Source of the DNA: an uncultured Pseudomonadota bacterium
GTDB lineage: Bacteria > Pseudomonadota > Alphaproteobacteria > RF32 > CAG-239
NCBI GenBank assembly: GCA_902494875.1
Contig: CABUUO010000002.1
Location: 32,547-96,546 of the forward strand
Reading direction: 5' to 3'
Length of the DNA stretch: 64,000 nt
Part shown: positions 1,920 through 62,873 of the stretch, piece after piece
Position numbering within the stretch: the first letter of the stretch is position 1
How the letters are laid out: every line of letters starts with the position of its first letter
Made by a program: the position numbers and the translations under genes
The notes under the pieces: generated by a model
What the model was told of the DNA's origin: nothing
What the model saw: the letters and a program-made list of their open reading frames with translations, nothing else
The model's database searches: none

Positions 1920-1939
1920 ACTTGATTTAGGAAAAAGCA

Positions 1940-4619: not shown

Positions 4620-4621
4620 TC

Positions 4622-6310: not shown

Positions 6311-6326
6311 AGTTTAGGAGAGAATT

Positions 6327-7460
6327 ATGGCAGGCGAACAGGAAAAAAGAAGCGCGTCCAATTCGATGCAAAAGGCTATGCGCAAGCTCAATACGGTTGA
6401 GGAATATTACGCTAAGCTGATTTGTAACTTTTCCAATGAAGCACGATTAAAACTCTATCGCAAAATCGCCTCGCTGATGAGAAACCGCTTTTCTCTGATG
6501 AGTGCTTTGGATATGCTTCATGACAGCGCCAGCGACGGCGGCAAAAGTCCGGGAGAACCGATGGCTATCGCCATTGCCTGCTGGGGTCGGGCGCTCAACA
6601 ACGGTTTGACGTTTTCCGACGCTCTGAAAGGCTGGGCTCCGGACCGTGAACGACTGATGCTGTCGGTCGGTGACGTCTCAGACCTGGAAGGCGCTCTGCT
6701 CAACCTTATTCGTGTTACCGAAGGTTCAACAAAGATGATCCGTCCGATTATCGGCGCAATTGCTTACCCGACCTTTTTGTTTTTGATGGCGGTTTTGATT
6801 ATTTACGGTATCGGCGTATATATGGTGCCGCCGATGTTGGATGCGGCGCCCGGCGTTCGTTGGCGAGGACTGGCAAAAGATCTGGTTGATGTTTCGGCCT
6901 GGATTCAACAATATTGGCTGGTTGCATTTTCAGCACTGCCGATCACAATGCTGGTCATCTACCTGACAATCGGACTCTGGACCGGACCTATCCGCGCCAT
7001 TGTCGATAATATGCCGCCTTATTCACTTTATAAGGTGTTCGTCGGCATCAGTTGGCTGCTGGCCTTGTCCGCACTGGTTAAGGGCGGTACGCCGGTATCA
7101 ACGGCGATGCGGGCCTTGAGGCGCGACGCGACCCGCTATTTGAAAGAAAGAATTGACAAGACGCTGGTCTTCATCAACAACGGTGACAACCTTGGTATTG
7201 CCCTGAAAAAAACCGGACTTGATTTTCCCGATAAGGAAGTTATTGCCGATTTAAAAATTTATTCGGAATTGGATAACTTTGAAGAAGCTCTGGAATCGCT
7301 GGCCAATCAATGGCTGGAGGAGTCCGTTTATCTGATTGAGCAGAAGGCGGCTTTGTTAAATATGGCGGCAATTCTAAGCGTCGGCGGCGTTATCGCCTGG
7401 GCCGTCATGGGCACCTTTGAAATGCAAGACCAAATTACCAGCAGTATGGGACAAGGCTGA
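6327..7460 (+). CDS. Pilus inner-membrane platform protein (GspF/PilC/BfpE/R64-PilR family)
   Basis: 377 aa polytopic membrane protein immediately after the ATPase. An AGGAG ribosome-binding site precedes it. Confidence 0.65.
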   Translation: MAGEQEKRSASNSMQKAMRKLNTVEEYYAKLICNFSNEARLKLYRKIASLMRNRFSLMSALDMLHDSASDGGKSPGEPMAIAIACWGRALNNGLTFSDALKGWAPDRERLMLSVGDVSDLEGALLNLIRVTEGSTKMIRPIIGAIAYPTFLFLMAVLIIYGIGVYMVPPMLDAAPGVRWRGLAKDLVDVSAWIQQYWLVAFSALPITMLVIYLTIGLWTGPIRAIVDNMPPYSLYKVFVGISWLLALSALVKGGTPVSTAMRALRRDATRYLKERIDKTLVFINNGDNLGIALKKTGLDFPDKEVIADLKIYSELDNFEEALESLANQWLEESVYLIEQKAALLNMAAILSVGGVIAWAVMGTFEMQDQITSSMGQG

Positions 7461-8047
7461 TGGAAAAGGCAAAAATAATTTTTAATAAAGCAATAAAAAT
7501 TTTTCATTCACCGGAAAGAATCGGCATTGCCGCGGCCGGAGCCGTTGTCATAATTGCCGCGGCAGCTTGGTTTTTGCTTAAAAGTCCGAAACCAGACGCC
7601 AATATTGTTACGGCCGGCAATCAAATCAGCCTGTTGACAGATAATGTACGAAAATTTTACCGTAATCGTCCCGATGCTTGGGGACTAAATACGCAATCTG
7701 TTTTGAAAAATGCAATTGCTCCCCAGGAAATGGTTCAAAACGGCAAATTGATTAACGCATTAGGAAAGGAAACCTTGGTCGGTGCGGATTCAAACGGCAC
7801 GACGGTTATGCCCGGCAGCAGAAATTTTGCCATTACTTTCAGAGGACTGGATTATGAAGAATGCGTTGAACTGTCCGCACTGGCTCCCGACGAAAAGACA
7901 GCATTGAGCCTTACTTCGGAAACGATTGCCAACGAGACAGAAACAATGTTTATCTGGGGCGGAGAACATCCGCTTCCGATAACAAGAAAAGCTGCGGAAG
8001 AATTCTGCAAACAACAAAATTCTCTCATTTGGAACATATTGTTATAG
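7460..8047 (+). CDS. Divergent pilin-like protein (minor pilin candidate)
   Basis: N-terminal hydrophobic helix. Its C-terminal region matches the pattern of the two downstream pilins (F-x-G-L-x-x-[DE]-x-C-V-x-L-[AS], with a second Cys near the C-terminus). Its start overlaps the platform gene's stop (TGATG). Confidence 0.4.
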   Translation: MEKAKIIFNKAIKIFHSPERIGIAAAGAVVIIAAAAWFLLKSPKPDANIVTAGNQISLLTDNVRKFYRNRPDAWGLNTQSVLKNAIAPQEMVQNGKLINALGKETLVGADSNGTTVMPGSRNFAITFRGLDYEECVELSALAPDEKTALSLTSETIANETETMFIWGGEHPLPITRKAAEEFCKQQNSLIWNILL

Positions 8048-14190: not shown

Positions 14191-14920
14191 AATCAAAGTA
14201 ATTGCCTCAAGCATCCGCGGGCCTCTGCACATAAACAAGGGCCTGCCTTGTCAGGACTGCTTTCGTTATTCCCGCGGCGGAAAAAATTTCGTCGCGGTGG
14301 TTTCCGATGGTGCAGGTTCGGCAAAATTCGGCAGAAACGGTGCAAAAATCGTTTGCGAAACCCTGATTGACCTGCTGAAAAACGCTCCGTTTTCCGATGC
14401 TAAAAAACATATTCGGAAAGCCATAGGCATTGCACGGGAAAAACTGGAAAGGCACCGTTTCAACAAGACCAAAGACGAAAAGGGAATCATGGATTTTTCG
14501 GCAACCGTGGTCGGTGTCATCTGCAATAAGAATCAGGGCCTGTTTTTCCATATCGGCGACGGTGCGGCACTGGCTTTTCGGGACGGGGAATATGAAAGAT
14601 TTACCGCTTCTCCTCCCGAAAACGGCAATTTTTCATGCGAAACCTATTTTTATACCCAGCCTGACTGGGAAAGAAATCTGCGCTTTACGGCTTTTGAAAA
14701 CGCCGATACCGTTTTTCTGATGAGCGACGGGCTGACCAATTTTTCCTTTGCACAGGATTACCAAAGCATTGAAAAAGGATTTATTCTGCCGATTAACAAG
14801 TTTTTGAACGAAACCGGCAGCAAGCCCAAGGCTGAAAGAGCCTTGGCCAATACGCTGAACAACGCGGAAGCCAGAAGGCTGAATTCTGATGACAAGACTC
14901 TTTTATGGGCGAGGCTATAA
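14177..14920 (+). CDS. PP2C-family Ser/Thr phosphatase (YegK/PphC-like)
   Basis: PCQDCF..., VVSDGAGS, MSDGL are PP2C metal-binding motifs. The gene overlaps the vWA gene by 14 nt. Confidence 0.7.
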   Translation: MKTNKIKVIASSIRGPLHINKGLPCQDCFRYSRGGKNFVAVVSDGAGSAKFGRNGAKIVCETLIDLLKNAPFSDAKKHIRKAIGIAREKLERHRFNKTKDEKGIMDFSATVVGVICNKNQGLFFHIGDGAALAFRDGEYERFTASPPENGNFSCETYFYTQPDWERNLRFTAFENADTVFLMSDGLTNFSFAQDYQSIEKGFILPINKFLNETGSKPKAERALANTLNNAEARRLNSDDKTLLWARL

Positions 14921-14922
14921 TC

Positions 14923-16386
14923 ATGGAAAACAGCAACGAATCCGTTGAATATAATGCCATTTACGGCGACGGGCATTTCGAAAAAATCAAACTCGGCGAA
15001 CTCATCAATAAAGGCGGTGCGGCCGGCAAAATTTATCTTAACGCCAATAACCCCAATATGGTGGCCAAGATTTTTCATAATCGCGGCAAAAGTTCCACCA
15101 ACCGACAGAAGCTGGAGGCAATGCTCTTAAACCGGCCCCATTTTCCGGCTGCAGTCAAAGACGGCGTAAACTATGTGCAGATCGCCTGGCCAGAAGCGAT
15201 GCTTGAGGACGAAGACGGCTTTTGCGTCGGTTATCTGATGCCGCTGATTAAAATGAGTGACGCCGTTTCGCTTGACCACCTGATGCAAAAAGCCATTCGC
15301 AAAAAACTGAAACTGCCGGAAAGTTATGCCTACAGGATATTTGCAGCCTACAATCTGGCGTCAATGGTAACGGCACTGCATAAATGCGGACATTATATCG
15401 TCGATATGAAACCTTCCAACGTTTCGGTATACAAAGACAACATGATGGTGGCCATGGTTGACTGCGACGGCTTTTCCATAAAAGGGGAAAAGAACCGTTA
15501 TCCGGCCGAATTTGTCAGCGAAGAATACATTTACCCCGAGGGAATGGAACAATCCTGCGACGAAATGGGCGAGGAGCAGGATAAATTTGCCCTGGCAGTA
15601 ATCATTTTCAAACTTCTGAATAACGGCATTCATCCATTTTCAGGCGTTCCGCGCAAAAACGACGCCGAAATGCTGACCATTCAGAATCGGATTGAACAAT
15701 ATCATTACGCCTATGGCCTGTGGCCGGACACATATCAGGCGCCGCACCCCTACTCGATTCACGAATATTTTGACAAAGCTACGCTGGAATTGTTTGAACG
15801 GGCTTTTGCCAAAGGCGGAGAACGCCCCAGCGCCTACGAATGGCAGGAACATCTGTGGAAGCTGATGCATCATTTGAAAACCTGTAAAAAAGACGCCAAT
15901 CATGTTTATTTTACGTCCAAAGGCTGCGGCCTTTGCATGGTGGAAGAAAAATTTCATCATGACATGAGCGATCTACGCAGACAAAAATCAACCCCAGAGA
16001 CGGTTCGGGGGCTGGAAATCGAATCTCTGAAACTGGAAAATCTGCAAAAAAACAAAAAGGAAAAACTGGCTTTTGACAACAAAATGCAATTGATTTCCGG
16101 CGCGGCTCTGGTGATTTATATGTTGTTTTTTGCCTTTTTATACAAGCTGCTGCTGCCGGCGGCCGATCATATTTTGCAAATGGGGATCGGCCTACAGGCG
16201 ATTGTTGTTACCCTGACAATGCTCGGCATTAACAGTCTGTTTAAAAAATATTACGAACTGCTGCCGATTTTAAAAAATCGAACCATTACCCAGATGCTGC
16301 AGGTCTATGCGCTGATCTGCATCATCATTGCCTTAGTTTCAATTAACGATATTCCCAAAAATTTACTGGATTTAGCCGCCGATTAA
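14923..16386 (+). CDS. Hanks-type Ser/Thr protein kinase with C-terminal membrane region (YegI-like)
   Basis: Glycine-rich loop GGAAGKIY, a VAKIF lysine, catalytic loop VDMKPSN and a DCDGF segment in place of DFG. The C-terminal 120 aa have 3-4 hydrophobic helices. The start is immediately after the PP2C stop. Confidence 0.7.
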   Translation: MENSNESVEYNAIYGDGHFEKIKLGELINKGGAAGKIYLNANNPNMVAKIFHNRGKSSTNRQKLEAMLLNRPHFPAAVKDGVNYVQIAWPEAMLEDEDGFCVGYLMPLIKMSDAVSLDHLMQKAIRKKLKLPESYAYRIFAAYNLASMVTALHKCGHYIVDMKPSNVSVYKDNMMVAMVDCDGFSIKGEKNRYPAEFVSEEYIYPEGMEQSCDEMGEEQDKFALAVIIFKLLNNGIHPFSGVPRKNDAEMLTIQNRIEQYHYAYGLWPDTYQAPHPYSIHEYFDKATLELFERAFAKGGERPSAYEWQEHLWKLMHHLKTCKKDANHVYFTSKGCGLCMVEEKFHHDMSDLRRQKSTPETVRGLEIESLKLENLQKNKKEKLAFDNKMQLISGAALVIYMLFFAFLYKLLLPAADHILQMGIGLQAIVVTLTMLGINSLFKKYYELLPILKNRTITQMLQVYALICIIIALVSINDIPKNLLDLAAD

Positions 16387-44566: not shown

Positions 44567-45370
44567 CTATTCTTCAGTTTTTTCTTCGGCTTTAGCGGCT
44601 TTTTTCGGAGCTCTTTTCTTCGGAGCTTTTTCAGCAGCGGCTTCAACCATTTCTTCGACTTTAACGCCCTGAGCAGCGATTTCGGCGGACATACCGTCCA
44701 AAACTGCGCCGGAAACCAGTTCCGAATAGAATTGGATGGCACGGATCGCATCGTCGTTGCCCGGTACCGGGAAGTCTACGGCATTGGGGTCTGCATTGGT
44801 ATCGCAGATACCGATTACAGGAATGCCCAATTTTTTAGCTTCTTTAATGGCCAGGCTTTCTTTCGGCGTGTCGATAACGAACAGCAGGTCAGGCTGACCG
44901 CCCATATTCATAATGCCGCCGAGTTCCAGAGCCAGTTTTTCCTGTTCTTTTTTCAGGTTCAAAACTTCTTTCTTGGTGTAACCCTCGTAAGAGTTTTTCT
45001 CAGCCATTTCGTTTAATTTAGCAAGGCGGGAGATTGATTTGTAAACAGTCTTCCAGTTGGTGAGCATACCGCCCAGCCAACGGTGGTTTACATAGTACTG
45101 TCCGCAACGCTCGGCGTTTTCCTTGATGATGTCCTGAGCCTGTCTTTTGGTGCCGACAAACAAAACCTTACCGCCGTTGGCAGCGATCTCGCGAGCCGCA
45201 TTCAGGGCAGAATACAGCATCGGGTAGGTTTTCTGCAGGTCGATAATATGAATGTTGTCTTTTTTACCGTAAATGAACGGAGCCATTTTCGGGTTCCAGC
45301 GACGGGCATGGTGACCAAAGTGAACGCCAGCTTCAACCATCTGACGCAATGTAAATGTTGGAATTGTCAT
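44567..45370 (-). CDS. rpsB: 30S ribosomal protein S2
   Basis: GVHFGHHARRWNPKM signature; upstream of tsf. Confidence 0.9.
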   Translation of the reverse strand: MTIPTFTLRQMVEAGVHFGHHARRWNPKMAPFIYGKKDNIHIIDLQKTYPMLYSALNAAREIAANGGKVLFVGTKRQAQDIIKENAERCGQYYVNHRWLGGMLTNWKTVYKSISRLAKLNEMAEKNSYEGYTKKEVLNLKKEQEKLALELGGIMNMGGQPDLLFVIDTPKESLAIKEAKKLGIPVIGICDTNADPNAVDFPVPGNDDAIRAIQFYSELVSGAVLDGMSAEIAAQGVKVEEMVEAAAEKAPKKRAPKKAAKAEEKTEE

Positions 45371-45670
45371 ATTTTTTATCCTATTTTTCCAGTTAAACCT
45401 CCGCAGACTCTGAACCGCTTGCGCGGCACCGGAGCGAAATGAGAAACATTCCGTTTATCTGCGTGTGAATTACGGCGCGACTCAAAAAGGCGCGTCCGGA
45501 ACTCTTTTTATACGTATCTATTGATAAATGCAAGCATTTTTTACGTTCCGGCATAAAAAACGCCGCGGGACAGACGGCGCTTAAAATTTGTTTGTATTTG
45601 CAGTTTATTCCTTGCAAAACCCGCGGAAATACTGTAGTTTATCGCTAAATTTGAAAGTTTTGAGGATAAA

Positions 45671-48538: not shown

Positions 48539-48614
<76 letters not shown>

Positions 48615-48620
48615 ATTCCT

Positions 48621-48648
48621 AAAGCACCGCCAAGCGCGGTGCTTTTTT
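48621..48648 (+). terminator. Terminator between the two tRNA-Ala genes
   Basis: gcaccgc-caa-gcgcggtgc followed by TTTTTT. Confidence 0.5.
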
Positions 48649-48654
48649 ACAAAC

Positions 48655-48730
48655 GGGGTCATAGCTCAGTTGGGAGAGCGATTGGTTCGCAATCAATAGG
48701 TCGGGAGTTCGATCCTCCCTGGCTCCACCA
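48655..48730 (+). tRNA. tRNA-Ala (anticodon CGC)
   Basis: GGGGTCATAGCTCAGTTGGGAGAGC, G3:U70, anticodon loop TTCGCAA, with CCA encoded. Confidence 0.8.
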
Positions 48731-48837
48731 ATTTTTCAAAAGCACTGTTTCTTTCGGCAGTGCTTTTTTGTCAGCCGCTCAAACTTCGCTTAACGCTCGT
48801 TTTCCCGGGGGAGGATCACTTCGGCATCTAATTGCGC
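48717..48837 (+). repeat. Direct repeat copy 1: the last 14 nt of tRNA-Ala(CGC) plus 107 bp of downstream flank, including the terminator hairpin
   Basis: It is about 97% identical to 48929-49050 (2-3 differences). The two copies are separated by a 91 bp spacer. Confidence 0.8.
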
Positions 48838-48928
48838 CGTCATTGCTTTTGCAATCCCGTCTCAATAAGATGTTACGAAGAACTGGCAGAACCCAAACAC
48901 CATACACAGGTGTTTGGGTCTTAGCGTT

Positions 48929-49050
48929 CCCTGGCTCCACCAATTTTTTAAAAGCACTGTTTCTTTCGGCAGTGCTTTTTTTGTCAGCCGCTCAAACTTC
49001 GCTTAACGCTCGTTTTCCCGGGGGAGGATCTCTTCGGCATCTAATTGCGC
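48929..49050 (+). repeat. Direct repeat copy 2: a duplicated tRNA-Ala 3' end (ccctggctccacca) plus flank
   Basis: Tandem duplicate of 48717-48837. It has the shape of an att site generated by site-specific integration into a tRNA gene. Confidence 0.8.
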
Positions 49051-49153
49051 TTATTTTATCTTCCCGGTTAATCACACCCTCGCAAATTCACTCTTTTATT
49101 TTTCGCTTTAGCTCTTAATATATTTATCAGACAATAAAATAAGGAGAAAAACG

Positions 49154-50795: not shown

Positions 50796-51902
50796 TTATT
50801 TTACAAAAATCTGTACTTCGGCAGAATTGGCTGCACTGCTGGTTTTGGAAGAAAGGGCAATCCTTTCCGGACCGACACCCATATCAATCATATCCTGAAA
50901 GATACGAGACGCATTGTTTTTGGCCGAAGTCTGCGCCAAAACATTGCCGTTGGACGGCGAAACGGCCACGACTTCAAACATTACGCCGGGCTTTTTTTCA
51001 ATGGCGCGGCTGACGGCCTGTTTTAAGCCATCATGATATTTGACGTCGGTCTTGTTAAACTTGGCAACAAACAAAGGCGAACCGGAAGCCGCCGCTTTGC
51101 CGCCGAAACTGCCGGCGTTTTTGTAGGCAACACCAGAAGCCAACGGAACATTGTTAACACCGTAGCTGCCGGCTTTGATGGCGCCGCTCAAATCAACAAT
51201 GTAGTTGCGGGCGGTTTCGATATACTGCTGCTGACGGGCGGCATCTGAGTTAATCTCGTTCAACAGACTGCCGATTAAAATCGAGGTCTGATTGGTTTCG
51301 TTTTCCAAAATGCGGAGCTGTCTGTGATCTTCGTCAACGGCACCGGAAACACTATAGGCGGCGCGAATCGAATCCAGCAGATAACTGGTCATGGCCGAAT
51401 CAGAGGAAACTCTGGTTGCCAGCTGATTTAAGGCTATGGTATTGGCATTCATAACCTGAATATTGTTCTGCGCAGACTGGAGCATACCAAACATCTGCGG
51501 ATTTCCCGGCGTGGTGCCGACCTGAAGTTTGGCTTCAATCGTGCCAATCAGCTTATGATACTGCAAGGCATTGTTAATGACGGAAGCACGAATCTTCTGC
51601 AAATCCTCGTTATGTTTGCGAATGGCACTTTGCAGCTGAGCCAGTTCATTGCGGAAAGTAACTACTTTCTGGCCGACAAAAGTGCCGGTATTACCGCCCT
51701 GAGAAATTTCCAAAGGTTTGAAATTGGTAGAACCGAGTTCCGGAATATCTGCGCTTTTAACATCGGAAGAAGCCTGTGCGGAAATCTCTTCCGACGAATC
51801 CATACCTACCAGCGAAGGAAACAAGGCGTCTTGCGAATACGTGCATCCGCCGAACGCGAATATGGATAAAGAAGCCAAGGACAGTTTGATTATGTGTTTC
51901 AT
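50796..51902 (-). CDS. Lipoprotein with OmpA-like C-terminal peptidoglycan-binding-like region
   Basis: Lipobox FAFGGC. The C-terminus (...NASRIFQDMIDMGVGPERIALSS...) resembles an OmpA_C motif. Confidence 0.4.
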   Translation of the reverse strand: MKHIIKLSLASLSIFAFGGCTYSQDALFPSLVGMDSSEEISAQASSDVKSADIPELGSTNFKPLEISQGGNTGTFVGQKVVTFRNELAQLQSAIRKHNEDLQKIRASVINNALQYHKLIGTIEAKLQVGTTPGNPQMFGMLQSAQNNIQVMNANTIALNQLATRVSSDSAMTSYLLDSIRAAYSVSGAVDEDHRQLRILENETNQTSILIGSLLNEINSDAARQQQYIETARNYIVDLSGAIKAGSYGVNNVPLASGVAYKNAGSFGGKAAASGSPLFVAKFNKTDVKYHDGLKQAVSRAIEKKPGVMFEVVAVSPSNGNVLAQTSAKNNASRIFQDMIDMGVGPERIALSSKTSSAANSAEVQIFVK

Positions 51903-52839: not shown

Positions 52840-53991
52840 TCAGGCAACGAACAAATCTTTGATTTTATCCAAAAAGCTTTTGGATTCCGGCTGGCAGGCA
52901 TCATCTTTGCTGATAGCGCGAAACTCTTCCAAAAGCTCTTTCTGGCGGGCCGAAAGATTGACCGGCGTTTCAACCCGGAGTTTGACAAACAGGTCGCCGC
53001 GGCGGGTCGAACGCAGCATGGTCATTCCCTGACCTTTTATTTTGGCAACCTGATCATTTTGGGTTCCGGGTTCAATGTCCAGTTCAATCTTTTCGCCGTC
53101 TATTGAAGGAATATTCACTTTTCCGCCCAGAGCGGCACAAGTCATCGAAATCGGTACCGAAGCGTAGAGGTTAGCGCCCTCGCGACTGTAAAGCTTGTGA
53201 TCTTTGATGTTGATAAAGACATAAAGGTCTCCGTTTTCGCCGCCGCGCAGACCGGCCGTTCCTTCGCCGGAGATACGCATTCTGGTGTCGTCTTCGATTC
53301 CGGCCGGAATTTTAACTTTCAGCGTTTTTTCCTGAGCAATGAAGCCATCTCCGCCGCAGGTTTTGCATTTGTCTTTTACCAGACGGCCGCTGCCGCCGCA
53401 TTTGGGGCATGTGGTTTCAACAATGAAAAAACCGCCCTGCTGACGACGGATTTTGCCGCTGCCGCGGCAATCGGGACAAACCGGCGCCTCTTTGCCGTCG
53501 GCGGTTCCGTGACCGTGACAGTCTTCGCAAACCCTGGTGGTCGGAATTTTAATTTCCTTTTCAACACCGGCAAAAGCTTCTTCCAGAGAAATTTCCAGAT
53601 TATAGCGCAGATCCGAACCGCGTTCGGCCGAACTGCGCGGATGGGCACCGCGACCGCCGCCCATAAACTCGGAAAAAATGTCGGAAAAGACATCGGAAAA
53701 ACCACCGGCTCCGAAATTGAACTCAAAACCGCCGAACGGATTGCCGCCGGCGCCGTTCATACCGCCGGCAAAAGCCTGATGCCCGTAACGGTCATAGGCC
53801 GCTCGCTTCTGTTCGTCTTTCAAAACCTCATAGGCTTCGTTAATTTCTTTGAATTTGGTTTCCGCTTCCTGATTGCCGGGGTTGCGGTCCGGATGATATT
53901 TCATGGCCAGACGACGGTACGATTTTTTGATTTCCTCACCGCTGGCCGTTTTGCTTACTTCCAAAAGTTCGTAATAATCTTTTTCGGTCAT
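52840..53991 (-). CDS. dnaJ: Chaperone protein DnaJ
   Basis: J-domain YYELLEVSKTASGEEIKKSYRRLAMKYHPDRN, a Gly/Phe region and four CxxCxGxG zinc-finger repeats. Confidence 0.9.
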   Translation of the reverse strand: MTEKDYYELLEVSKTASGEEIKKSYRRLAMKYHPDRNPGNQEAETKFKEINEAYEVLKDEQKRAAYDRYGHQAFAGGMNGAGGNPFGGFEFNFGAGGFSDVFSDIFSEFMGGGRGAHPRSSAERGSDLRYNLEISLEEAFAGVEKEIKIPTTRVCEDCHGHGTADGKEAPVCPDCRGSGKIRRQQGGFFIVETTCPKCGGSGRLVKDKCKTCGGDGFIAQEKTLKVKIPAGIEDDTRMRISGEGTAGLRGGENGDLYVFINIKDHKLYSREGANLYASVPISMTCAALGGKVNIPSIDGEKIELDIEPGTQNDQVAKIKGQGMTMLRSTRRGDLFVKLRVETPVNLSARQKELLEEFRAISKDDACQPESKSFLDKIKDLFVA

Positions 53992-54202
53992 TTCTCTTAC
54001 ACTGCAAAAAAAATTAATTAAAAGCTAGTTGTTATTTAAGGTTTTTAGAGAAAGAAAGCAAGCTTTTTGAATAACTAATTAAAAATTAAGCATTTAATAT
54101 TACACTTTTGTTAAAAGAGATTCTGTTGGACAAAAATATTTGCCAAAATTGCAAAATGATGGTAATATGTGTTCATATATATAAATATTTTGGAGACTTG
54201 AA

Positions 54203-57200
54203 ATGGCCAGATATACCAATGATAACGTTAGAAACGACACCGACTTTCTGAATTTTATCAAAAACGAATACGGATATGACAGCACCGAGGCCATTCCGGC
54301 ATTTGAATACAATGCGATTCTGTATAGATTCAAAGCAAAAGAAAATGACTTTGACGACGAAGATTTTGCCGCTCTGGAAGCTTATGCGGACAATGAAAAG
54401 CTTCAGGACATTGTAGACATTTACTATCCGGAAAAAACAGTCAAAGACTTGAGTATGGAAGACACTGCTTTTGTCCAGGCCATTGCCCGGGAAACGGCCA
54501 ACAACCCCGACGTCTCCCTTGATATAATCAGAGAATCGCGCCGCCAGAAAAAAATGCGGGCGATAGATGAATCAATAAACGAAAGTGCACCTCAACAATT
54601 GGATGCAATAAAAGATGGCAAAAATGTCACTCTAATCGTGGATGACTCCGAATTTTCCAAAGCACAGATTTCATACTACGGAAAAGACAATGGGGATAAG
54701 GATCTGATCAAAATTGAATTATTTGATCTGGAAAGCAAAAATATTGGTTATGCCATTATGCCATTTACAGGCGGAGAATCTTTCGGTGAAATAAATGGTC
54801 ATAAATTTGAAGTCAGATCCCCTGACGAAAAGCAGACGACCTTTAAATTAGACAATATTCAGAAAAATCTAACAAATACCTCTCTTGGCAATATGGTTGG
54901 ACTTATTGATGATGCCTTTAAGGAAGAATCCCGAGAAATACAAGAGGTTGCACATTATGTTGCCATGGCAGAACGCGCAACAAGTCTTGCCGCTTTTAAT
55001 TTTTGGCGAGATGATTTTAGAGAATTAAAACACTACTCCAAAGAAGAACTTGACGGCATTATGAAAGCCCATGAGGTTTATCTGCAGGCTCCCGACGAGG
55101 TTCAAAACCACGAAACGCTGAAAGCCATGGACGCCAATTATGAAAGTACGCACGGCGATCTGTTTGTCGAGACAGTTGAAACCGCCGAAAAAGACATTGC
55201 CGCCTATGCCGACGGAACCTTAACCATTGACGCCGACGCTTATGACAGCATGGAACAATATATTTCCACTTTCGGGCGCGGCACCAGAAAAGACGCCAAC
55301 GGCGAGTTTATCTACACGCCGACAGCATTAAAAGCGCTTGAAAGACTTAAAACCGACCGTGAAAAGGCACCGGCCCAAAGAACGGTTTCCGGCGCCGACA
55401 AAGAAGCAACGCTGGCCGGGATTGTTTCCGGCCTTCAGAGAAACGCCCAAGAACGCGAAAAGCAACAAAACCGCGGCGCGGCTGGAATTATAATTAATGA
55501 AACGGCAGAAAAAGAACTGCAAAAAGACGAACGCAAAAGCGGCATTGACAAACTGCAGCAAAATGAAGGCGAAAACGCCCGCATCCGCAGTGACCACAAC
55601 CTTTCCAACGAGCAGAAACTGGCTGCAGTCAGACTTTTGGTCATGTCCAACATGGAAGTCATTTCCGCCGAAGACTACCAAAAATATTCAACCGACATTC
55701 GCAGCGAAGATATTCAAAAAGCTCAGGAAGCCTTTGAATTTGTCGACAATGCCGAAGAAAAGGTCAAAAAGCCCGAAGAATATAAGAATCAAATGGTTGA
55801 CGTGCTGCTGAACCGGGATTTGGCCGAGCTGATGACACCGGAAATGACGACCGTCGCCTATGACAATCTGCAAAAACGAATCGCCGAGGCGGAAAAGCAG
55901 GCAAAGAAAGAAAAATCCGACGAAGCAGACCAAAACGTTGCCGCTCTCAATACTAAACTGGAAGACGTTTTATCCCGCATGGACAGCCTGCAGGGCGATT
56001 TCAAAAACAAACGCGGCTTTTATCTTTTAGACATTACAAATGCCGCCGACGCCTATGACGGCTATATGCATATGTTTGATGTTCGCCAGAAAGACCTGGA
56101 CGCCAAAAACAAGGCTTTGGAGCAGGACAAAAAAGAACTTGACGCCGAAGCAGACAAAGAGCGGATTGCCGAAATTGACAAGGAAATGGCGGCAAACGAA
56201 GCGGTTAAAAACGAATACGGACAATCTCAGCAGGATATGGACGAGATTATTGCCACCTATGATGAAAGATGGAATATTCCGAGCGGCAAGAATCCCCGCG
56301 ATACGGCGATCAGCTTTAACGACCGCATCAAAACCGGCAGCAAGATTCTCGACGAGCTCAAATTTGACGAAGAAACGCTCGGCAGCGAACTTTTGACCGA
56401 AGTCAGCAAATTCAAGTTCAATGACAAAGACGGCAAACCGATTCCGCAGTTTATCGACCCCCAAAATCCGGAAACCAAGAGCGACGTATGGCGCGAGGGC
56501 CTGGAAGTTGATCCGAACGGACAACTGGCTACGGTTTTGAAACTGGCAGGAAACGACTCCCTGATGGAAAATCTGGGTTCAAAAGAAAAAATCACCAAAG
56601 AAAAAATGGTTGAAGAACTCAAGAGCAACGTTCCGTTCAAGCTGTTTGAAATATACAACGCCGAGGAAACCATCCGCGGCGCGGTTGAAGATCCGGAAAA
56701 ATTCACAACAAAAAAAGAACAGTATCTGGCTGAATTTCAGGCCAAGCTGAATAATCCGGAAATTCCGCTCGGCATTTCTCCGGAAGGCTATAACGCGGCA
56801 ATCGACGATCAGGTCAACAAGGTTGAGGTTTATGCCAACCGCCTGGACCGCAAACTCGGCAAAGCCAACACCGAATTTACCAAAGCAGTATTGTTTGAGC
56901 AGGTGCAGAAGATTGACCGACAGGCTCCGAATCGCGGCAAGAAGAGCAAAGACATTAAGAAAGGCGCCATGAAACGCGCCTTGTGGGGCGTGGCAATGGG
57001 CGGAACCATGGCTTATGTCGGTTCGCGTCTGGTTACCAACGCTGTCGCTACCGGAGGCATTTCCGTTATCGGAAGCTCTGCCTTGGCACTGGGCACCGCC
57101 GTTACCGTCGGCGCCGCAGCGACGGCCATGCAAATATGGTCCCGTAAGAAAGCCGCCAAAAAACGCGGTGAAAAATACGGTTGGAAAGAATTCAAAAAAG

Positions 57201-58891
57201 ACAAAATGCTGCACGCTTCCATCTTAACGACAACCTTGGCTTGCGCTTCAGCCGCATTCGCCATGTCCAACGCACCGGAACTGTCAATCCCGGCCGCCGC
57301 CTGCGCTATCGGCTCGTTCGGCATGGGCGCCGGCCTGCGTTTTGCCCAGCCGTATCGAGAAATGCGCCTGAAAGGCCACGGCAAAGTTGCAGCCTTTGCT
57401 CTCGGCGCCGCCAACGCCGCTGCCGTTTTTGCCGGAGGATATCTGGGCAGACAACATGGTTTGGGCGACATTACGCCGACGCAGCATGAAGAAATCACCG
57501 GATATAAAGACGTTAAGGTCGGTGAGGTGAAAACCTACAGCGAAGACCAGATTGCCAAGGTTACCGAACGCAACAATACTGACAGTATGTGGGAATACCG
57601 CGGCGAAGGACCGCATGACATTCCGGCATACCGCAATCCGGACAATTATTCAAACGAAGCCTGGTGGACACCGGAACAGCATGACAAGGCCATTGCCGCT
57701 TTGAAAGAGCAGATGCCGAAACTGGGCTGGAAAGAAGGCGTCGGCAACGAAGAGGTTATGCTGCGCAAGCTGGCTTCTTTTGAAAGGCTGCACCGCAACA
57801 GCGATTTTGTGTTGCCGGACGGTCAAACCGTCGGCGAAAAGTTCGGCGACTACAAAGCCCTGCTGGACGGGCTGCTGGAAGGCAAACTGACGCCGGAAGG
57901 CGCCAAACAGCTTGACGTTATTCAGTATAACGTTGGCGAAAACGGCCACTCCAAAATTTTGGACAGCCTCGGCGGCGAACTGTATTCTTATCAGGACCAT
58001 CCGCACGGAATCCACAGCGAAGACGTTATGGATAAAGTGCCGGTCAAGACCATGGTTGACGACAAAGTCAACGCTCCCGGCGGCGGCGTTTTCGGATGGG
58101 TGGTATCTTCCTGGAACAAGCTGAAAGACAAAATTCGTCCGGGAACCAAAGCCGACAAGGTAGAGAAAAAGGAAAAGCCGAAACCCGAGCCCGAAAAGCC
58201 GATTATCCCGGTGATTGTTCCCGAGAAGCCGAAGCCGGAACCGGAAAAACCGGTTGTGGTACCGGTACAGCAGGAAGAGAAACCAAATAATCTGATGCTT
58301 GACGAATATAAAATCGTTTACGGCATAGAACCGGAAACGACCCCCGGCAAAGACAAGGCCTGGAAAGAATATTGCCAGCGCGTGGAAGAAGAACGCAAAG
58401 CTGCCGCTCCTGACAAGGATATGAACACGTTTCTGCTTGACCGCCGTCAGAAGCTTGACGAAACCATTATGAACAATGTTGTCAGCGAAAACGACGTCAC
58501 GGAAGCAGGCAAACCTATTCGCAGCGATTATATGGTCAAAAAAGCCAAAGATGACCGCGGCAAGGCCGGCGTTGTCATGGAAGCACGTCAGAATCTGATG
58601 CAGAGCAACCTGACCAAAGACAATTTTCTGCACAAGATTACGCTAAGCCACTTTACCAAGTTTATGGAGCACTTTGTCAAGCACGACGAAGTCGTAGCTG
58701 ACGGTTCGCGCAACATTGCCCTTAATCCGAAGCTTAAAGACAAGTATAAAAAAGAGGGCAGCAAAGTTGCCATTGTCGACCTGAACCAATATCTGGTCGA
58801 AGATAAACCTTTGGACACGGCCAAACAAAAAGTCAGCGGCAAAGATGCCCGTCAGGCCATGACAGACCTGAAAAAGACTTATGAGCGTTAA
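54203..58891 (+). CDS. Giant hypothetical protein (1562 aa): acidic/coiled-coil regions, a central Gly/Ala-rich hydrophobic block and Pro/Lys/Glu repeats; candidate secreted effector or surface protein
   Basis: Uninterrupted ORF with a GGAGA ribosome-binding site and no signal peptide. It has KPKPEPEKP(I/V) repeats near residue 1320. Residues about 910-1090 contain 4-5 hydrophobic Gly/Ala-rich segments. Confidence 0.55.
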   Translation: MARYTNDNVRNDTDFLNFIKNEYGYDSTEAIPAFEYNAILYRFKAKENDFDDEDFAALEAYADNEKLQDIVDIYYPEKTVKDLSMEDTAFVQAIARETANNPDVSLDIIRESRRQKKMRAIDESINESAPQQLDAIKDGKNVTLIVDDSEFSKAQISYYGKDNGDKDLIKIELFDLESKNIGYAIMPFTGGESFGEINGHKFEVRSPDEKQTTFKLDNIQKNLTNTSLGNMVGLIDDAFKEESREIQEVAHYVAMAERATSLAAFNFWRDDFRELKHYSKEELDGIMKAHEVYLQAPDEVQNHETLKAMDANYESTHGDLFVETVETAEKDIAAYADGTLTIDADAYDSMEQYISTFGRGTRKDANGEFIYTPTALKALERLKTDREKAPAQRTVSGADKEATLAGIVSGLQRNAQEREKQQNRGAAGIIINETAEKELQKDERKSGIDKLQQNEGENARIRSDHNLSNEQKLAAVRLLVMSNMEVISAEDYQKYSTDIRSEDIQKAQEAFEFVDNAEEKVKKPEEYKNQMVDVLLNRDLAELMTPEMTTVAYDNLQKRIAEAEKQAKKEKSDEADQNVAALNTKLEDVLSRMDSLQGDFKNKRGFYLLDITNAADAYDGYMHMFDVRQKDLDAKNKALEQDKKELDAEADKERIAEIDKEMAANEAVKNEYGQSQQDMDEIIATYDERWNIPSGKNPRDTAISFNDRIKTGSKILDELKFDEETLGSELLTEVSKFKFNDKDGKPIPQFIDPQNPETKSDVWREGLEVDPNGQLATVLKLAGNDSLMENLGSKEKITKEKMVEELKSNVPFKLFEIYNAEETIRGAVEDPEKFTTKKEQYLAEFQAKLNNPEIPLGISPEGYNAAIDDQVNKVEVYANRLDRKLGKANTEFTKAVLFEQVQKIDRQAPNRGKKSKDIKKGAMKRALWGVAMGGTMAYVGSRLVTNAVATGGISVIGSSALALGTAVTVGAAATAMQIWSRKKAAKKRGEKYGWKEFKKDKMLHASILTTTLACASAAFAMSNAPELSIPAAACAIGSFGMGAGLRFAQPYREMRLKGHGKVAAFALGAANAAAVFAGGYLGRQHGLGDITPTQHEEITGYKDVKVGEVKTYSEDQIAKVTERNNTDSMWEYRGEGPHDIPAYRNPDNYSNEAWWTPEQHDKAIAALKEQMPKLGWKEGVGNEEVMLRKLASFERLHRNSDFVLPDGQTVGEKFGDYKALLDGLLEGKLTPEGAKQLDVIQYNVGENGHSKILDSLGGELYSYQDHPHGIHSEDVMDKVPVKTMVDDKVNAPGGGVFGWVVSSWNKLKDKIRPGTKADKVEKKEKPKPEPEKPIIPVIVPEKPKPEPEKPVVVPVQQEEKPNNLMLDEYKIVYGIEPETTPGKDKAWKEYCQRVEEERKAAAPDKDMNTFLLDRRQKLDETIMNNVVSENDVTEAGKPIRSDYMVKKAKDDRGKAGVVMEARQNLMQSNLTKDNFLHKITLSHFTKFMEHFVKHDEVVADGSRNIALNPKLKDKYKKEGSKVAIVDLNQYLVEDKPLDTAKQKVSGKDARQAMTDLKKTYER

Positions 58892-58902
58892 GGATCGCGT
58901 CA

Positions 58903-60900
58903 ATGAAAAAAACGGAAATTTCTTCCGAAGAAATTGAAGTCATTCGGAACAGTGCGCCTTATCGGGAATTTGTCAAGGCGCACCCCGATGCTTCGCCGGA
59001 AAAATTTATTGAAGAACAGATCAAAGATCTTCAAGGGTATTTGTTTAAGAAAAAATATAACCGCGCGTTGACGCCGCTGCAACATTATTTATCGCTCGGA
59101 TCCGCCCGACGTCAGGAACTGCTGGCGGAATGGGGCGCTTCTGCATCTGCGGTTGCGGACAACGTGCGGACGGATGAAGCGCCAAACAGTCCGGCCGAAG
59201 AAAAAAACATGACCGACAGAGAGAAAACGGAAGAAAAAAGCAGTGCTGAACATCCGCTGCCGGCGGAACATAACAACCAAAAAGAAAAAGAGAAAGCGCC
59301 GCGACAGGAAATTCGCCGTTATCTGAAAATGGATCCGGCCGAACTGCTGGTTAATGCATTTGATTATGTCGTTGATGACAAAGGTTACATTTTGGCCGCG
59401 GACAAACCGATGGTTCTACGGTTGTGGAACAATGAAAAATTCCGCACCGGATGGGATAATTTCATTCAAAAAGTCGAAAATGCCGAAATTGCCCTGCCCC
59501 GCTCAAAGCTTTATACGGCGGCAGTCGCGTATATTTGTGAACGGTTGGGCAGAGAACAGGCGCCGAAAGAACATTTGCAGGCTGACCGCCTTATTGATTT
59601 TTCAACCGACAGGCTGCTTAAGGACTTGGCGGAAAACATTCCCGAACTGGCTCGGGACAAAGACGGCAATACACCGGAAAACCGCCAGAGAATCGTCGAT
59701 TTTATGCGTTTTACGGAAAGCGGCAAAAAAAGCCGCGAGGCGATAAGGAACAAGGACTGGGATTTTCTGCGCAAAGAATACATCCGGTTTCCGAAAGTCC
59801 CGACGCAGATTTTATTTAACATATACCAAAACCAGCTGCAAAAAGAGCAAAATGACGAACATTTCAACTATCTGCTGGAAAAATTTACTGCCGATTCCGA
59901 TGACAAGGAAAGGCTTCTTGTTCTGTTGAAAGCCGTATACAAAGACGATGCCGGCCATGGCGGCGACCGTGCCGAAATGTTGCGCCGGATTATCCTCATG
60001 CGTTTTGAAGACATCCGCCGCGGAAAATGGAAAATAAGCAACGATGACGAACTGAAAGCGATCGAAGACTTCATCAGGGCGGAAAAAGAAAGAAATGCAG
60101 ATTTTGCCGCCAAGCTTGAAATTAATCAGGCAATAGCAAATTACAAAAAGAAAAAGGCAGAGAAACCGGTGCCGGAGGAAGCGGAAGACACGGCAGCAGT
60201 CATCGTGCGCGAAGGTATTGCCGCAAAAGGCGATGAATCGCCACAAGCGGCAAAGCCGGTTTCAACAGAGTGTACCGAAGCGGCGGCAGAGGCCGAAACC
60301 ACCGGCAAACCAGAGCATCTTTCCACAGAAGAAAAGGCGGAAACAAAAGCCGTCAAAACGGCCTCCGAAGCTTCAGACGCCCATGAAAGCTCAGATGACC
60401 AAGCTACTGCCGTCTGGCAGAAAAAAACCGTTCTCTCATGGAAAAAATGGGCGCAAAAAAATGACAAGACCGTTGCGGAATATGTGCCGGAAGAAGATCC
60501 GCAGGCTCTGGGTATAAAAATATACAAGGACGAAGCCGCCCAAAAAGCCGAACAGGCCGAAACGGACATTTTATATAAGAACCCGAAAGAAATCGTCGTT
60601 ACCGGAAAAACCGACGTCAGCCTTTTTGAAAACATTGTTGCCGAAGCCAAGAAAAACAGTCCGGAAATTAAGTTCGGCGAGATAAAATCTCCTGACTTCA
60701 AAGCCAAATTATGGCTGGCCTGCCTGCGGGACAAAGATATTAAAATTATTGATGCACCCAAAATAAAAGACTTGCAGGGCGCCGATCCGGCGATTGTCGA
60801 GGAAATAAAAAAAATCAAAGCCGAGAGATACAAACATTATACGGAAACCAAAAACAAGAAAGACAAAACCGTTCCGATGCCTCAGAGAGACGGCCGCTGA
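58903..60900 (+). CDS. Large hypothetical protein (665 aa), Lys/Glu-rich
   Basis: Uninterrupted ORF 12 bp after the giant gene. No recognisable domain. The terminator at 60917-60945 follows it. Confidence 0.45.
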   Translation: MKKTEISSEEIEVIRNSAPYREFVKAHPDASPEKFIEEQIKDLQGYLFKKKYNRALTPLQHYLSLGSARRQELLAEWGASASAVADNVRTDEAPNSPAEEKNMTDREKTEEKSSAEHPLPAEHNNQKEKEKAPRQEIRRYLKMDPAELLVNAFDYVVDDKGYILAADKPMVLRLWNNEKFRTGWDNFIQKVENAEIALPRSKLYTAAVAYICERLGREQAPKEHLQADRLIDFSTDRLLKDLAENIPELARDKDGNTPENRQRIVDFMRFTESGKKSREAIRNKDWDFLRKEYIRFPKVPTQILFNIYQNQLQKEQNDEHFNYLLEKFTADSDDKERLLVLLKAVYKDDAGHGGDRAEMLRRIILMRFEDIRRGKWKISNDDELKAIEDFIRAEKERNADFAAKLEINQAIANYKKKKAEKPVPEEAEDTAAVIVREGIAAKGDESPQAAKPVSTECTEAAAEAETTGKPEHLSTEEKAETKAVKTASEASDAHESSDDQATAVWQKKTVLSWKKWAQKNDKTVAEYVPEEDPQALGIKIYKDEAAQKAEQAETDILYKNPKEIVVTGKTDVSLFENIVAEAKKNSPEIKFGEIKSPDFKAKLWLACLRDKDIKIIDAPKIKDLQGADPAIVEEIKKIKAERYKHYTETKNKKDKTVPMPQRDGR

Positions 60901-60916
60901 ATCTTCATCTTGCAAT

Positions 60917-60945
60917 AAAAAACCCCGTCATATGACGGGGTTTTT
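60917..60945. terminator. Rho-independent terminator (serves the 665-aa gene; also lies downstream of dnaK on the other strand)
   Basis: aaaaaaccccgtca-tatg-acggggttttt. Confidence 0.65.
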
Positions 60946-60962
60946 CCGTAACGAAAGATTGT

Positions 60963-62873
60963 TTACTTCACTTCTTCAAAGTCAGCATCAACGACTTTTT
61001 CGTCTTTCGGCTGCTCTGCGGAAGCTCCGGCTTCAGGACCTGCGGCGCCTTGGGTTCCGGCCGCACCTTCTGCCTGTTTGTACATAGCTTCGCCAAGCTT
61101 CATGGAAGCCTGCATCAAACTTTCGGTCTTGGCTTTGATATTGCTCAAATCATCGCCTTCCAGAGCGGATTTCAGAGTTTTGATTTCTTCTTCAATTTTG
61201 CTCTTTTCAGCCGGGCTCAGCTTGTCACCGTGTTCTTTGAGCGTTTTCTCGGTGCTCAAGACCAAAGATTCACCCTGGTTTTTGGCTTCAACCAATTCCT
61301 TGCGCTTTTTATCGGCTTCGGCATTGGCTTCGGCATCCTTAACCATCTTTTCGATATCGGCATCGGACAAGCCGCCGGAAGCCTGAATGCGAATGGTCTG
61401 TTCTTTGTTGGTCGCCTTATCTTTAGCCGAAACGTTGACAATGCCGTTGGCGTCAATATCAAAGGTTACTTCAATCTGCGGCATACCGCGCGGTGCAGGG
61501 GGAATACCGACCAAATCGAACTGGCCAAGCAGCTTGTTGTCCGCAGCCATTTCGCGTTCGCCTTGGAAAACACGAATGGTTACGGCACTCTGACCGTCTT
61601 CGGCAGTTGAAAAAACCTGAGACTTACGGGTCGGAATGGTGGTGTTGCGGTCAATCAGGCGCGTAAAGACACCGCCCAACGTTTCAATACCCAGAGACAG
61701 CGGGGTAACGTCCAGCAGCAATACGTCTTTCACATCGCCCATCAGAACACCGCCCTGAATGGCGGCACCGACGGCAACGACTTCATCGGGGTTAACGCCT
61801 TTGTGCGGCTCTTTACCGAAAATTTCCTTTACCTTTTCCTGAACTTTCGGCATACGGGTCATACCGCCGACCAGAATAACTTCGCTGATTTCGTTGGCTT
61901 TCAGACCGGCATCGGCCAAAGCTTTTTTGCAGGGCTCGACGGTTCTTTCAATCAAATCGCCGACCAAGTCTTCCAGTTTGGCACGGGTCAGTTTGATGTT
62001 CAGGTGTTTCGGACCGGTTGCATCAGCCGTAATAAACGGCAGATTGATTTCGGTCTGAGTGGTTGAAGACAATTCGATTTTGGCTTTTTCGGCCGCCTCT
62101 TTCAAGCGCTGCAAAGCCAGACGGTCATTTTTCAGATCAATACCGGATTCTTTTTTAAATTCTTCAACCAAGTAGTCCAAAATACGACGGTCAAAGTCTT
62201 CACCGCCGAGGAAAGTATCGCCGTTGGTGGATTTTACTTCAAAAACGCCGTCACCGATTTCCAAAATGGAAATATCAAAGGTACCGCCGCCAAGGTCATA
62301 AACGGCAATGGTGCCGGAAGCCTTTTTATCCATACCATAAGCCAAAGCCGCAGCCGTCGGCTCGTTAATGATACGCAAAACGTCAAGACCGGCAATTTTA
62401 CCGGCATCTTTAGTGGCTTGGCGCTGGGAATCGTTAAAATATGCCGGAACGGTAATGACGGCTTTTTCAATTTTCTCGCCAAGATAACTTTCGGCATATT
62501 CTTTAATCTTTTGCAAAACAATTGCCGAAATCTGCGAAGGCGCATATTTTTGGCCTTTGACTTCGACCCAGGCATCACCGTTGTCACCTTCAACAATTTT
62601 ATAAGGAACGATGTTTTTGTCTTTGCTGACTTCCGGCGAATCAAAACGACGGCCGATCAACCTTTTAATGGCAAACAGCGTGTTTTCCGGGTTGGTTACG
62701 GCCTGACGTTTGGCCGGAAAGCCGACCAGGCGCTCCGTATCCGTAAAGGCAACCATTGAAGGGGTAGTTCTGGCACCTTCAGAGTTTTCCAAAACCTTAG
62801 CTTCTCCGCCTTCCATTACGGCAAAGCAGGAGTTGGTGGTACCAAGGTCAATACCGATTACTTTATTGCTCAT
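60963..62873 (-). CDS. dnaK: Chaperone protein DnaK (Hsp70)
   Basis: [19 protein letters not shown] and the C-terminal EEVK-type tail. 636 aa. Confidence 0.95.

Follow-up and report, generated by a model that had tools for sequence, protein, structure and literature searches.

A window of 64,000 nucleotides (nt) from an uncultured alphaproteobacterium (contig CABUUO010000002.1 of GenBank assembly GCA_902494875.1, positions 32,547 to 96,546; all coordinates below are those of this whole stretch) carries a gene for a protein of 1562 amino acids (aa) which, as far as sequence searches tell, is a member of an undescribed family confined to uncultured gut alphaproteobacteria. The evidence so far makes it look less like an accessory effector than like a core membrane protein specific to its lineage. 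The reading favoured here, tentatively and with considerable reserve, is that of a lineage-specific integral membrane protein resident in the organism's own cytoplasmic membrane, linking the cytoplasm to the envelope. This reading draws on the loop-charge pattern of a conserved block of five hydrophobic helices, on core-gene behaviour, on purifying selection and on a uniform architecture.

A first-pass annotation of the same DNA had described the open reading frame (ORF) at 54203-58891 as lacking a signal peptide, as containing a near-identical KPKPEPEKP tandem repeat and as having a central multi-helix block rich in Gly and Ala, and had likened its architecture to that of effectors rather than of housekeeping proteins. 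The description was accurate. The ORF exists on the plus strand and has an ATG start; its N-terminus (MARYTNDNVRNDTDFLNFIKNEYGYDS, read directly) is hydrophilic and acidic and therefore not a signal peptide; the decapeptide EKPKPEPEKP occurs twice within nt 58172-58270; and the five hydrophobic strings that had been picked out lie at residues 929-944, 952-976, 1007-1021, 1031-1045 and 1063-1079 (nt 56987-57439). An alignment of 49 family members, spanning 15-66% identity, defines six regions of the protein. The insertion energies quoted with them (dGapp, the apparent free energy of membrane insertion, in kcal/mol) are approximate, as they come from a re-implementation of the Hessa 2007 predictor (sanity checks: 19 Leu, -7.5; 19 Ala, +1.46).

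54203..58891, plus strand: coding sequence of the 1562-aa protein, ATG start (ORF listing and translation)
54203..55609, plus strand: variable, modular N-terminal region, residues 1-469, hydrophilic, probably cytoplasmic
55610..56947, plus strand: conserved all-helical core, residues 470-915, forming the signature of the family along with the membrane block, probably cytoplasmic
56978..57052, plus strand: hydrophobic helix H1, residues 926-950, with a Lys/Arg-rich flank before it, dGapp +1.76
57059..57139, plus strand: hydrophobic helix H2, residues 953-979, dGapp +0.97
57209..57268, plus strand: hydrophobic helix H3, residues 1003-1022, following the H2-H3 loop (residues 980-1002), which is strongly basic, dGapp +1.10
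57284..57337, plus strand: hydrophobic helix H4, residues 1028-1045, preceded by a tight conserved G/N-x-P-E turn, dGapp +1.62
57392..57448, plus strand: hydrophobic helix H5, residues 1064-1082, preceded by the basic loop Y-R/K-D/E-A-R-x-x-G, dGapp +1.84
57473..58162, plus strand: middle domain, residues 1091-1320, probably periplasmic
58163..58282, plus strand: Lys/Glu/Pro-rich spacer, residues 1321-1360, with two units of 16-17 residues
58283..58888, plus strand: compact, mostly helical C-terminal domain, residues 1361-1562

Kyte-Doolittle (KD) scans flag residues 943-979, 1002-1021, 1027-1045 and 1060-1082 as hydrophobic, and the helical character of the block is backed by the DSSP assignment of the AlphaFold2 model. 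The helices H1-H5 are virtually charge-free in all 49 aligned members, down to 15-30% identity, and the block was found in 116 of 157 relatives by single-sequence phmmer, which together argue that it is not a chance feature. Conserved Gly, Ala and Ser recur in the alignment at positions i, i+3/4 and i+7, on one face of each helix. Conserved charge-free helices of about 20 residues with a positive-inside bias, as in integral alpha-helical membrane proteins in general, are therefore present.

The segments between the helices alternate in charge, expressed as mean counts of Lys/Arg (K/R) versus Asp/Glu (D/E) in the 49 sequences. The flank before H1 (7.0 versus 3.1), the H2-H3 loop (8.2 versus 2.5) and the H4-H5 loop (3.7 versus 1.7) are basic; the H1-H2 loop (0.5 versus 0.4; mean length 12.9 residues) and the H3-H4 loop (0.2 versus 0.3; mean length 7.1 residues) carry hardly any charge; and the segment after H5 is net acidic (3.3 versus 5.0). 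According to the positive-inside rule, basic loops lie on the cytoplasmic side, and the alternation thus suggests an N-in/C-out topology with five predicted spans. In a subgroup of nine members of 1350-1550 aa (P0064, P0070, P0072, P0081, P0089, P0095, P0097, P0102 and P0111), an extra hydrophobic segment occurs about 150-250 residues from the C-terminus, which would alter the predicted side of their extreme C-termini.

The 1562-aa ORF is a real, constrained protein-coding gene. Compared with a 96%-identical strain (L004), the ratio of nonsynonymous to synonymous substitution rates (dN/dS) is 0.076 for this gene (143 synonymous and 45 nonsynonymous differences), 0.080 for the neighbouring dnaJ (33 and 10), 0.011 for dnaK (90 and 4) and 0.19 for the 665-aa ORF that follows the gene (64 and 49). 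The gene is thus under purifying selection comparable to that on dnaJ, and diversifying selection between close strains was rejected, since dN/dS does not exceed 0.26 in any region.

Over larger distances the protein diverges quickly, being 65-71% identical in species whose DnaK is 95% and DnaJ 80-86% identical, and only 26% identical (over residues 437-1488) at locus L007. Among type-A proteins the most conserved parts are the membrane block (74-84% identity) and the middle domain (69-88%), followed by the C-terminal domain (61-74%) and the helical core (55-75%), with the N-terminus far behind (22-53%, in homologs whose other regions are 55-88% identical). To judge from these identities, core, block and middle domain are constrained and the N-terminus is variable. 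"Type B" alleles at the same locus (P0005, P0006, P0008 and L006) have a C-terminal domain 71% identical and a remainder only 24-36% identical; the locus therefore carries mosaic alleles, since type B shares the C-terminal domain alone.

A word-indexed search of 5.8 billion proteins returned nine relatives only, all unnamed and metagenomic, and a second such search, based on the 49-sequence alignment, gave fewer matches than the first. When 1.84 billion cluster representatives (clusters at 50% identity) were searched with a profile of residues 430-1320, 179 clusters matched at E<=1e-3, 129 of them at E<=1e-30. Nearly all of these are 1000-1500 aa long and match the whole profile, and 124 long members share one and the same succession of N-terminal domain, 145-aa block and C-terminal tail. 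Two peptide patterns, one of them the FKFxDxxGxxxPQF motif described below, were scanned against 185,579 species, each represented by a single genome, and found at least 11 loci, a lower bound because of the two patterns used, with one locus per metagenome-assembled genome (MAG). No paralog was found in the 64-kb window either. The 11 MAGs are of uncultured gut Alphaproteobacteria or proteobacteria, three of them Candidatus Enterousia. Phages, plasmids and viral contigs gave no family match, and a mobile-element origin was rejected for this reason.

Outside the close clade the gene has rpmG/rplU-rpmA/parC, bamA-rseP-cdsA-uppS-frr or typA/ndk as neighbours. At four loci of Ca. Enterousia and related bacteria (L008, L009, L011 and L012), a protein of about 185 aa with a signal peptide (MRKFLPVLLVCFVSSAFA...) is encoded a few genes away, the sole recurring neighbour in the distant clade. 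Enterousia belongs to the order Rs-D84, whose genomes are below about 1 Mb and are without biosynthetic pathways, respiration and standard transporters, and whose members have been proposed to depend on partner cells through contacts (PMC12306168). These traits are stated for the order of bacteria in which distant family members occur.

Searches for known relatives of the protein were uniformly negative. Pfam, NCBIfam, PHROGs and PADLOC, applied to the protein and its neighbours, yielded for the protein a sub-threshold WTAP coiled-coil match only; Pfam found nothing in 34 diverse family members and no family in five sub-regions at E<=5, the block alone giving noise (RPS31, 0.048; DUF624, 0.16). 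Sequence searches of the PDB with single regions and two family profiles returned nothing below E=0.01. The first AlphaFold2 model, built from 8 sequences, was poor (predicted local distance difference test, pLDDT, 49) and its Foldseek search returned designed helical repeats only; for neither of the two models did Foldseek find a fold relative in the PDB. Tests of membership in named families thus all failed, and only generic features were recognised: the alpha-helical block, the proline spacer and an intermediate hydrophobicity. The protein is new at the family and fold level, with no Pfam, domain of unknown function (DUF) or NCBIfam model, and going by the structural models at least three of its domains are without known fold relative: the core of helices, the middle domain and the C-terminal domain, the last of which is modelled with confidence. 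Newness here means distance from known families and not a demonstrated new mechanism.

The helical core was detected in 121 of the 157 relatives by single-sequence phmmer and its helices are modelled with pLDDT of about 75-89 for residues 470-820. P546, D610, N613, D616, G620, Y686 and F739 are nearly invariant in the 49-sequence alignment. Two motifs of the core and two modules of the N-terminal region stand out:

56030..56065, plus strand: most conserved polar motif, D-x-T-N-x-x-D-x-Y-D-G-Y (DITNAADAYDGY), residues 610-621
56411..56452, plus strand: conserved motif F-K-F-x-D-x-x-G-x-x-x-P-Q-F, residues 737-750
54578..55027, plus strand: in-frame presence/absence module 1, residues 126-275, missing from 1412-aa and 1336-aa variants
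55118..55345, plus strand: in-frame presence/absence module 2, residues 306-381, missing from 1336-aa variants

In the first motif D610, N613, D616 and G620 are conserved in >=90% of the 49 sequences and invariant in homolog alignments, and in the second F739, D741, G744, P748, Q749 and F750 are invariant in homolog alignments. Such polar motifs suggest a specific binding or catalytic site and not a mere coiled coil. Pieces of the N-terminal region were detected in only 4-19 of the 157 relatives. Within one 90%-identity cluster, forms of 1562, 1412, 1336 and 1195 aa coexist (P0161, P0164, P0165 and P0170), with clean in-frame absences of residues 126-275 (1412 aa), 126-275 plus 306-381 (1336 aa) and 122-488 (1195 aa), from which it follows that this region is modular and partly dispensable; the L004 ortholog is without residues 149-368.

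C-terminal to the block, the middle domain has pLDDT of 70-92 for residues 1149-1249 and ends in a conserved G-x-G-x-x-G ... K-L-K-x-R-x-G-A-x-x-D motif whose D1318 is nearly invariant; family profile matches run through this domain in most members. The spacer that follows consists of EKPKPEPEKP-IIPVIVP (nt 58172-58222; decapeptide at residues 1324-1333, nt 58172-58201) and EKPKPEPEKP-VVVPVQ (nt 58223-58270; decapeptide at residues 1341-1350, nt 58223-58252, followed by VVVPVQQ). The two 30-nt stretches coding for the decapeptide differ at 6 positions, all synonymous, so that the repeat is not a recent DNA duplication and is maintained at the protein level; this divergence at synonymous sites is also why Tandem Repeats Finder misses it. 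Homologs have proline-rich spacers at the same place, variable in length and sequence, and 39% of long family members have >=10 prolines in a 40-residue window of the C-terminal tail. The C-terminal domain, without a recognisable fold relative, is modelled with pLDDT of 90-97. The C-terminal tail is modestly basic, a property not diagnostic of a secretion signal.

Taken together, these features would fit a protein whose N-terminal part of about 915 residues is cytoplasmic, as the positive-inside rule predicts, and whose five helices may form a tightly packed bundle with glycine-zipper-like faces that possibly oligomerises. The C-terminal 480 residues or so would then be periplasmic, comprising the middle domain, the TonB-like Lys/Glu/Pro spacer and the compact new alpha domain, with the spacer holding the terminal domain off the membrane, toward the wall or the outer membrane. 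The variable N-terminal modules and the soluble 665-aa protein, apparently co-transcribed, might serve as exchangeable cytoplasmic adaptors. Envelope organisation, cell-cell contact and transport are candidate processes, in a lineage with partner-dependent relatives.

Several observations weigh against a simple resident membrane protein, chief among them the intermediate hydrophobicity of the block, which also keeps the idea of export alive. With dGapp(18-35) of +0.97 to +1.84 kcal/mol, none of H1-H5 is predicted to insert autonomously; the best segment of the protein thus stays above the value (dGapp <0) at which autonomous Sec/SRP (signal recognition particle) insertion is expected, and no 12-17-residue targeting window goes below +0.19. 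If each of the 124 long family members is represented by its best segment, the median dGapp is +0.26; 52 members have a value below 0 and only 6 one below -2. Resident polytopic proteins normally have at least one strongly hydrophobic targeting helix, although marginally hydrophobic helices occur in ordinary polytopic proteins too. H5, family-wide the least hydrophobic helix (median KD 1.29), would have to bring some 480 residues across the membrane on its own. Whether the number of spans is odd or even, and hence the side of the C-terminus, is read from charge statistics alone; no peptidoglycan-binding or outer-membrane-binding domain was recognised; and the intraspecific N-terminal indels and mosaic alleles are not obviously explained if the N-terminus is cytoplasmic.

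The very short, uncharged loops between H1 and H2 and between H3 and H4 (12.9 and 7.1 residues, <=0.5 K/R) would also suit a cytoplasmic scaffold held by two hairpins, like the bilobed anchors of reticulons or Inc proteins, with H5 non-crossing or re-entrant and both large hydrophilic parts cytoplasmic. Such a protein would have an organising or shaping effect on the inner membrane, for instance during division, in polarity or as a cytoskeletal element. The low hydrophobicity of H5, a poor signal-anchor for a 480-residue domain, speaks for this arrangement, as does the presence of parC and zapA beside the gene in one distant member; FtsK and ZipA, moreover, have proline-rich linkers in their cytoplasmic parts. 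But acidic residues prevail in the segment after H5, in contrast to the three basic loops, AlphaFold2 packs H5 as the fifth long helix of the bundle, and no homology to division or polarity proteins was found, so that the hairpin arrangement is a rather unlikely alternative.

The first-pass annotation's own suggestion, an exported protein whose block enters the membrane of a partner or host cell, where the protein would act as a translocon, a pore or a membrane-resident effector, was found to have some basis in hydrophobicity. Transmembrane-domain (TMD) substrates of type III (T3SS) and type IVB (T4BSS) secretion systems occupy an "intermediate niche" of hydrophobicity (Krampen et al., PMC6110835), peaking near -1 kcal/mol, with T4BSS substrates mostly at -3 to +2; single-span membrane proteins fall at -2 to -5 and soluble proteins at +2 to +4 (PMC6110835). 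The protein lies between the membrane proteins of its own window (T2SSF platform protein, -3.0; EptA-like protein, -5.0) and the soluble ones (DnaK, DnaJ, ParE and others, +1.3 to +3.8), and the family overlaps the range of the secreted substrates (PMC6110835). Intermediate segments below the SRP threshold, a trait of TMD-effectors, are therefore present, a trait not exclusive to effectors, and the protein's own helices (+1 to +1.8) are at the soluble extreme of effector values. Export is also favoured by module indels that keep the reading frame and by mosaic alleles, both of which resemble those of contact-dependent or surface proteins, by the lack of a signal peptide, by a type IVb-pilus-like cluster in the same window and by the contact-based partner dependence proposed for the related reduced-genome Rs-D84 bacteria (PMC12306168).

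Against export, the likeness in architecture has no counterpart in families. T3SS translocators (SseC, IpaB_EvcA and relatives) gave no match in Pfam/NCBIfam, PDB sequence or fold searches, neither fold nor sequence family ties the protein to alpha-pore-forming toxins (ClyA/MakA/Hbl/Smh, colicin pore domain), and similarity to effectors was found neither in sequence nor in fold. Thus, of the membrane-insertion-type architecture proposed earlier, the intermediate hydrophobicity and the absence of a signal peptide stand, whereas the tie to translocon, pore-forming or effector families does not. No class II chaperone, injectisome or other secretion gene adjoins the gene or the other family loci examined, the 64-kb window has no T3SS or T4SS genes, and in each of the 11 genomes a single locus turned up, amid housekeeping neighbours. 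The lineage-wide conservation with dnaJ-like purifying selection, and the fact that conservation is highest in block and middle domain and not in a delivery signal, make export distinctly unlikely.

A variant of the export idea, more improbable still, sees the whole family as a conserved contact or feeding device. Its helices, kept just short of the hydrophobicity needed to enter the organism's own membrane, would leave room for export, and the glycine-zipper block would serve as conduit or anchor once planted in a partner's membrane; the mosaic alleles and the exchangeable modules at the N-terminus would then track different partners. About as improbable is a regulated homo-oligomeric channel in the organism's own membrane, assembled through the small-xxx-small faces and gated by the cytoplasmic domain. 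This would be a more specific version of the resident membrane protein, compatible with it, and would supply transport that reduced genomes otherwise lack. That the Gly/Ala-rich helices are the buried core of a soluble protein with no membrane role is very improbable, since charge-free helices with Lys/Arg caps are conserved at 15-30% identity, even if their dGapp overlaps that of the most hydrophobic soluble segments (DnaK, +1.33).

With a gene of 4-4.7 kb and no relative in curated databases, the family is one of few concrete candidates for lineage-specific envelope or contact machinery, and it may bear on the question of how Rs-D84 bacteria live off partner cells. Five conserved, marginally hydrophobic helices in a protein of about 1500 residues without signal peptide also pose a general puzzle of membrane biogenesis. 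Should the protein be only a structural scaffold, its value would lie mainly in the definition of a family and in a lineage marker.

The gene lies between dnaJ and dnaK, with the following elements around it:

52840-53991, minus strand: dnaJ (family scan)
54140..54168, plus strand: sigma-70-like promoter match, TTGCCA / 17-nt spacer / TAATAT with extended TG (consensus match)
54192..54195, plus strand: Shine-Dalgarno sequence GGAG, 7 nt 5' of the ATG (read directly)
58903..60900, plus strand: 665-aa ORF, candidate soluble partner, co-directional, preceded by an AGGA ribosome-binding site of its own
60917..60945, bidirectional: intrinsic terminator hairpin, A6-CCCCGTC-ATAT-GACGGGG-T5, where the 665-aa ORF and dnaK converge
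60963-62873, minus strand: dnaK (family scan)

The promoter match is an agreement with the consensus no better than expected from shuffled regions; it lies in a 211-bp AT-rich region common to the 1562-aa gene and the divergent dnaJ. The 665-aa ORF begins 12 nt past the stop codon of the large gene, with which it forms an apparent operon, and its product is acidic and without hydrophobic segment. The terminator hairpin is well supported (RNA fold -20.1 kcal/mol, z = -5.0; none of 200 shuffles equally stable). The dnaK-dnaJ pair, usually adjacent, is thus split (window 52840-62873) by a 6.9-kb two-gene unit on the opposite strand, and the same unit splits it in six related loci (L001, L003-L007); because the split is conserved, dnaJ must have its own promoter in the shared AT-rich region. 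In these six loci the 665-aa ORF adjoins the large gene with an identity of only 28-33%. It matched no family (Pfam, NCBIfam, PHROGs, PADLOC, PDB sequence), only 3 homolog clusters were found, and it is absent from the large-gene loci outside the close clade, the distant clade having no conserved operon partner.

Other observations were made in the window. Genes similar to those of a type IVb pilus or an R64 thin-pilus machine are clustered at 297-8047 (plus strand), with a secretin (297-1919), a PilO-like accessory protein (1940-3220), an ORF without assignment (3183-4619), a T2SSE-family ATPase (4622-6310) and the T2SSF platform protein (6327-7460); type IVb-like pili could matter for partner attachment in a reduced-genome bacterium. 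A 493-aa ORF at 14905-16386 (plus strand) has a Ser/Thr protein kinase domain of the eukaryotic type (E 3.7e-10 for Pfam Pkinase). The Rfam rpsB leader/small RNA element RF01815 was found at 45374-45467 (minus strand; 44.3 bits, gathering score 40), directly upstream of the ORF at 44567-45370 (minus strand), presumably rpsB. At 48539-49118 (plus strand), a listed 182-aa ORF (48570-49118) overlaps two adjacent tRNA-Ala genes (GGC, 48539-48614; CGC, 48655-48730), and probably does not code for protein, at least in its 5' part. The 368-aa ORF at 50796-51902 (minus strand) has a weak NCBIfam match to the alpha-pore-forming toxin subunit MakB, far below threshold (E 2e-5; 24 bits against a cutoff of 240) and probably compositional; its orthologs in L003 and L007 (78% identity) have an N-terminal lipoprotein-like signal ending in GGC.

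Compared with known systems, the protein shares with TMD substrates of T3SS/T4BSS (SipB/IpaB, SseF, Tir and Legionella TMD-effectors) and with chlamydial Inc proteins the absence of a signal peptide, paired helices with very short loops (bilobed hairpins) and an intermediate hydrophobicity. It differs from them in its much larger size, in the lack of sequence or fold similarity and of a nearby secretion system or chaperone, and from accessory effector repertoires in its single locus per MAG, its lineage-wide conservation and its purifying selection. The small-xxx-small periodicity of the helix faces is shared with glycine-zipper helices (VacA, MscL/MscS, Pfam Gly-zipper); here, however, five such helices lie in the middle of proteins of 1000-1500 residues, and the block is unmatched by the Gly-zipper_Omp, Gly-zipper_YMGG and Rick_17kDa_Anti profiles even at E<=5.

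The polar or envelope landmark scaffolds of Proteobacteria (PodJ, FimV/HubP and TipN) offer a likeness in architecture only: they too are large, helix-rich, fast-evolving and lineage-restricted, have low-complexity sequences and combine a membrane anchor with linkers that are acidic or rich in proline and with a terminal domain of small size. They have one or two spans and LysM, tetratricopeptide repeat (TPR) or peptidoglycan-binding modules, unlike the 1562-aa protein; neither it nor its 34 relatives contain LysM, TPR/Sel1 or peptidoglycan-binding modules or the FimV C-terminal motif in Pfam/NCBIfam searches.

TonB and TolA resemble the protein in the order of their parts, an inner-membrane anchor, then a rigid spacer rich in Lys, Glu and Pro, and at the C-terminus a small domain. 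They have a single N-terminal span, almost no cytoplasmic part and ExbBD or TolQR partners, whereas the 1562-aa protein would have a cytoplasmic domain of about 915 residues and five central helices; TonB_C or TolA domains were not found in it (Pfam/NCBIfam), nor are ExbBD/TolQR genes adjacent. E. coli TonB has an (EP)n-(KP)n region, to which units of the EKPKPEPEKP-IIPVIVP type are compositionally similar. A proline-rich Glu-Pro/Lys-Pro spacer as in the TonB family is thus present at residues 1321-1360, as a similarity in composition only, and in distant family members the spacer is followed by long Lys/Glu-rich helices reminiscent of TolA domain II.

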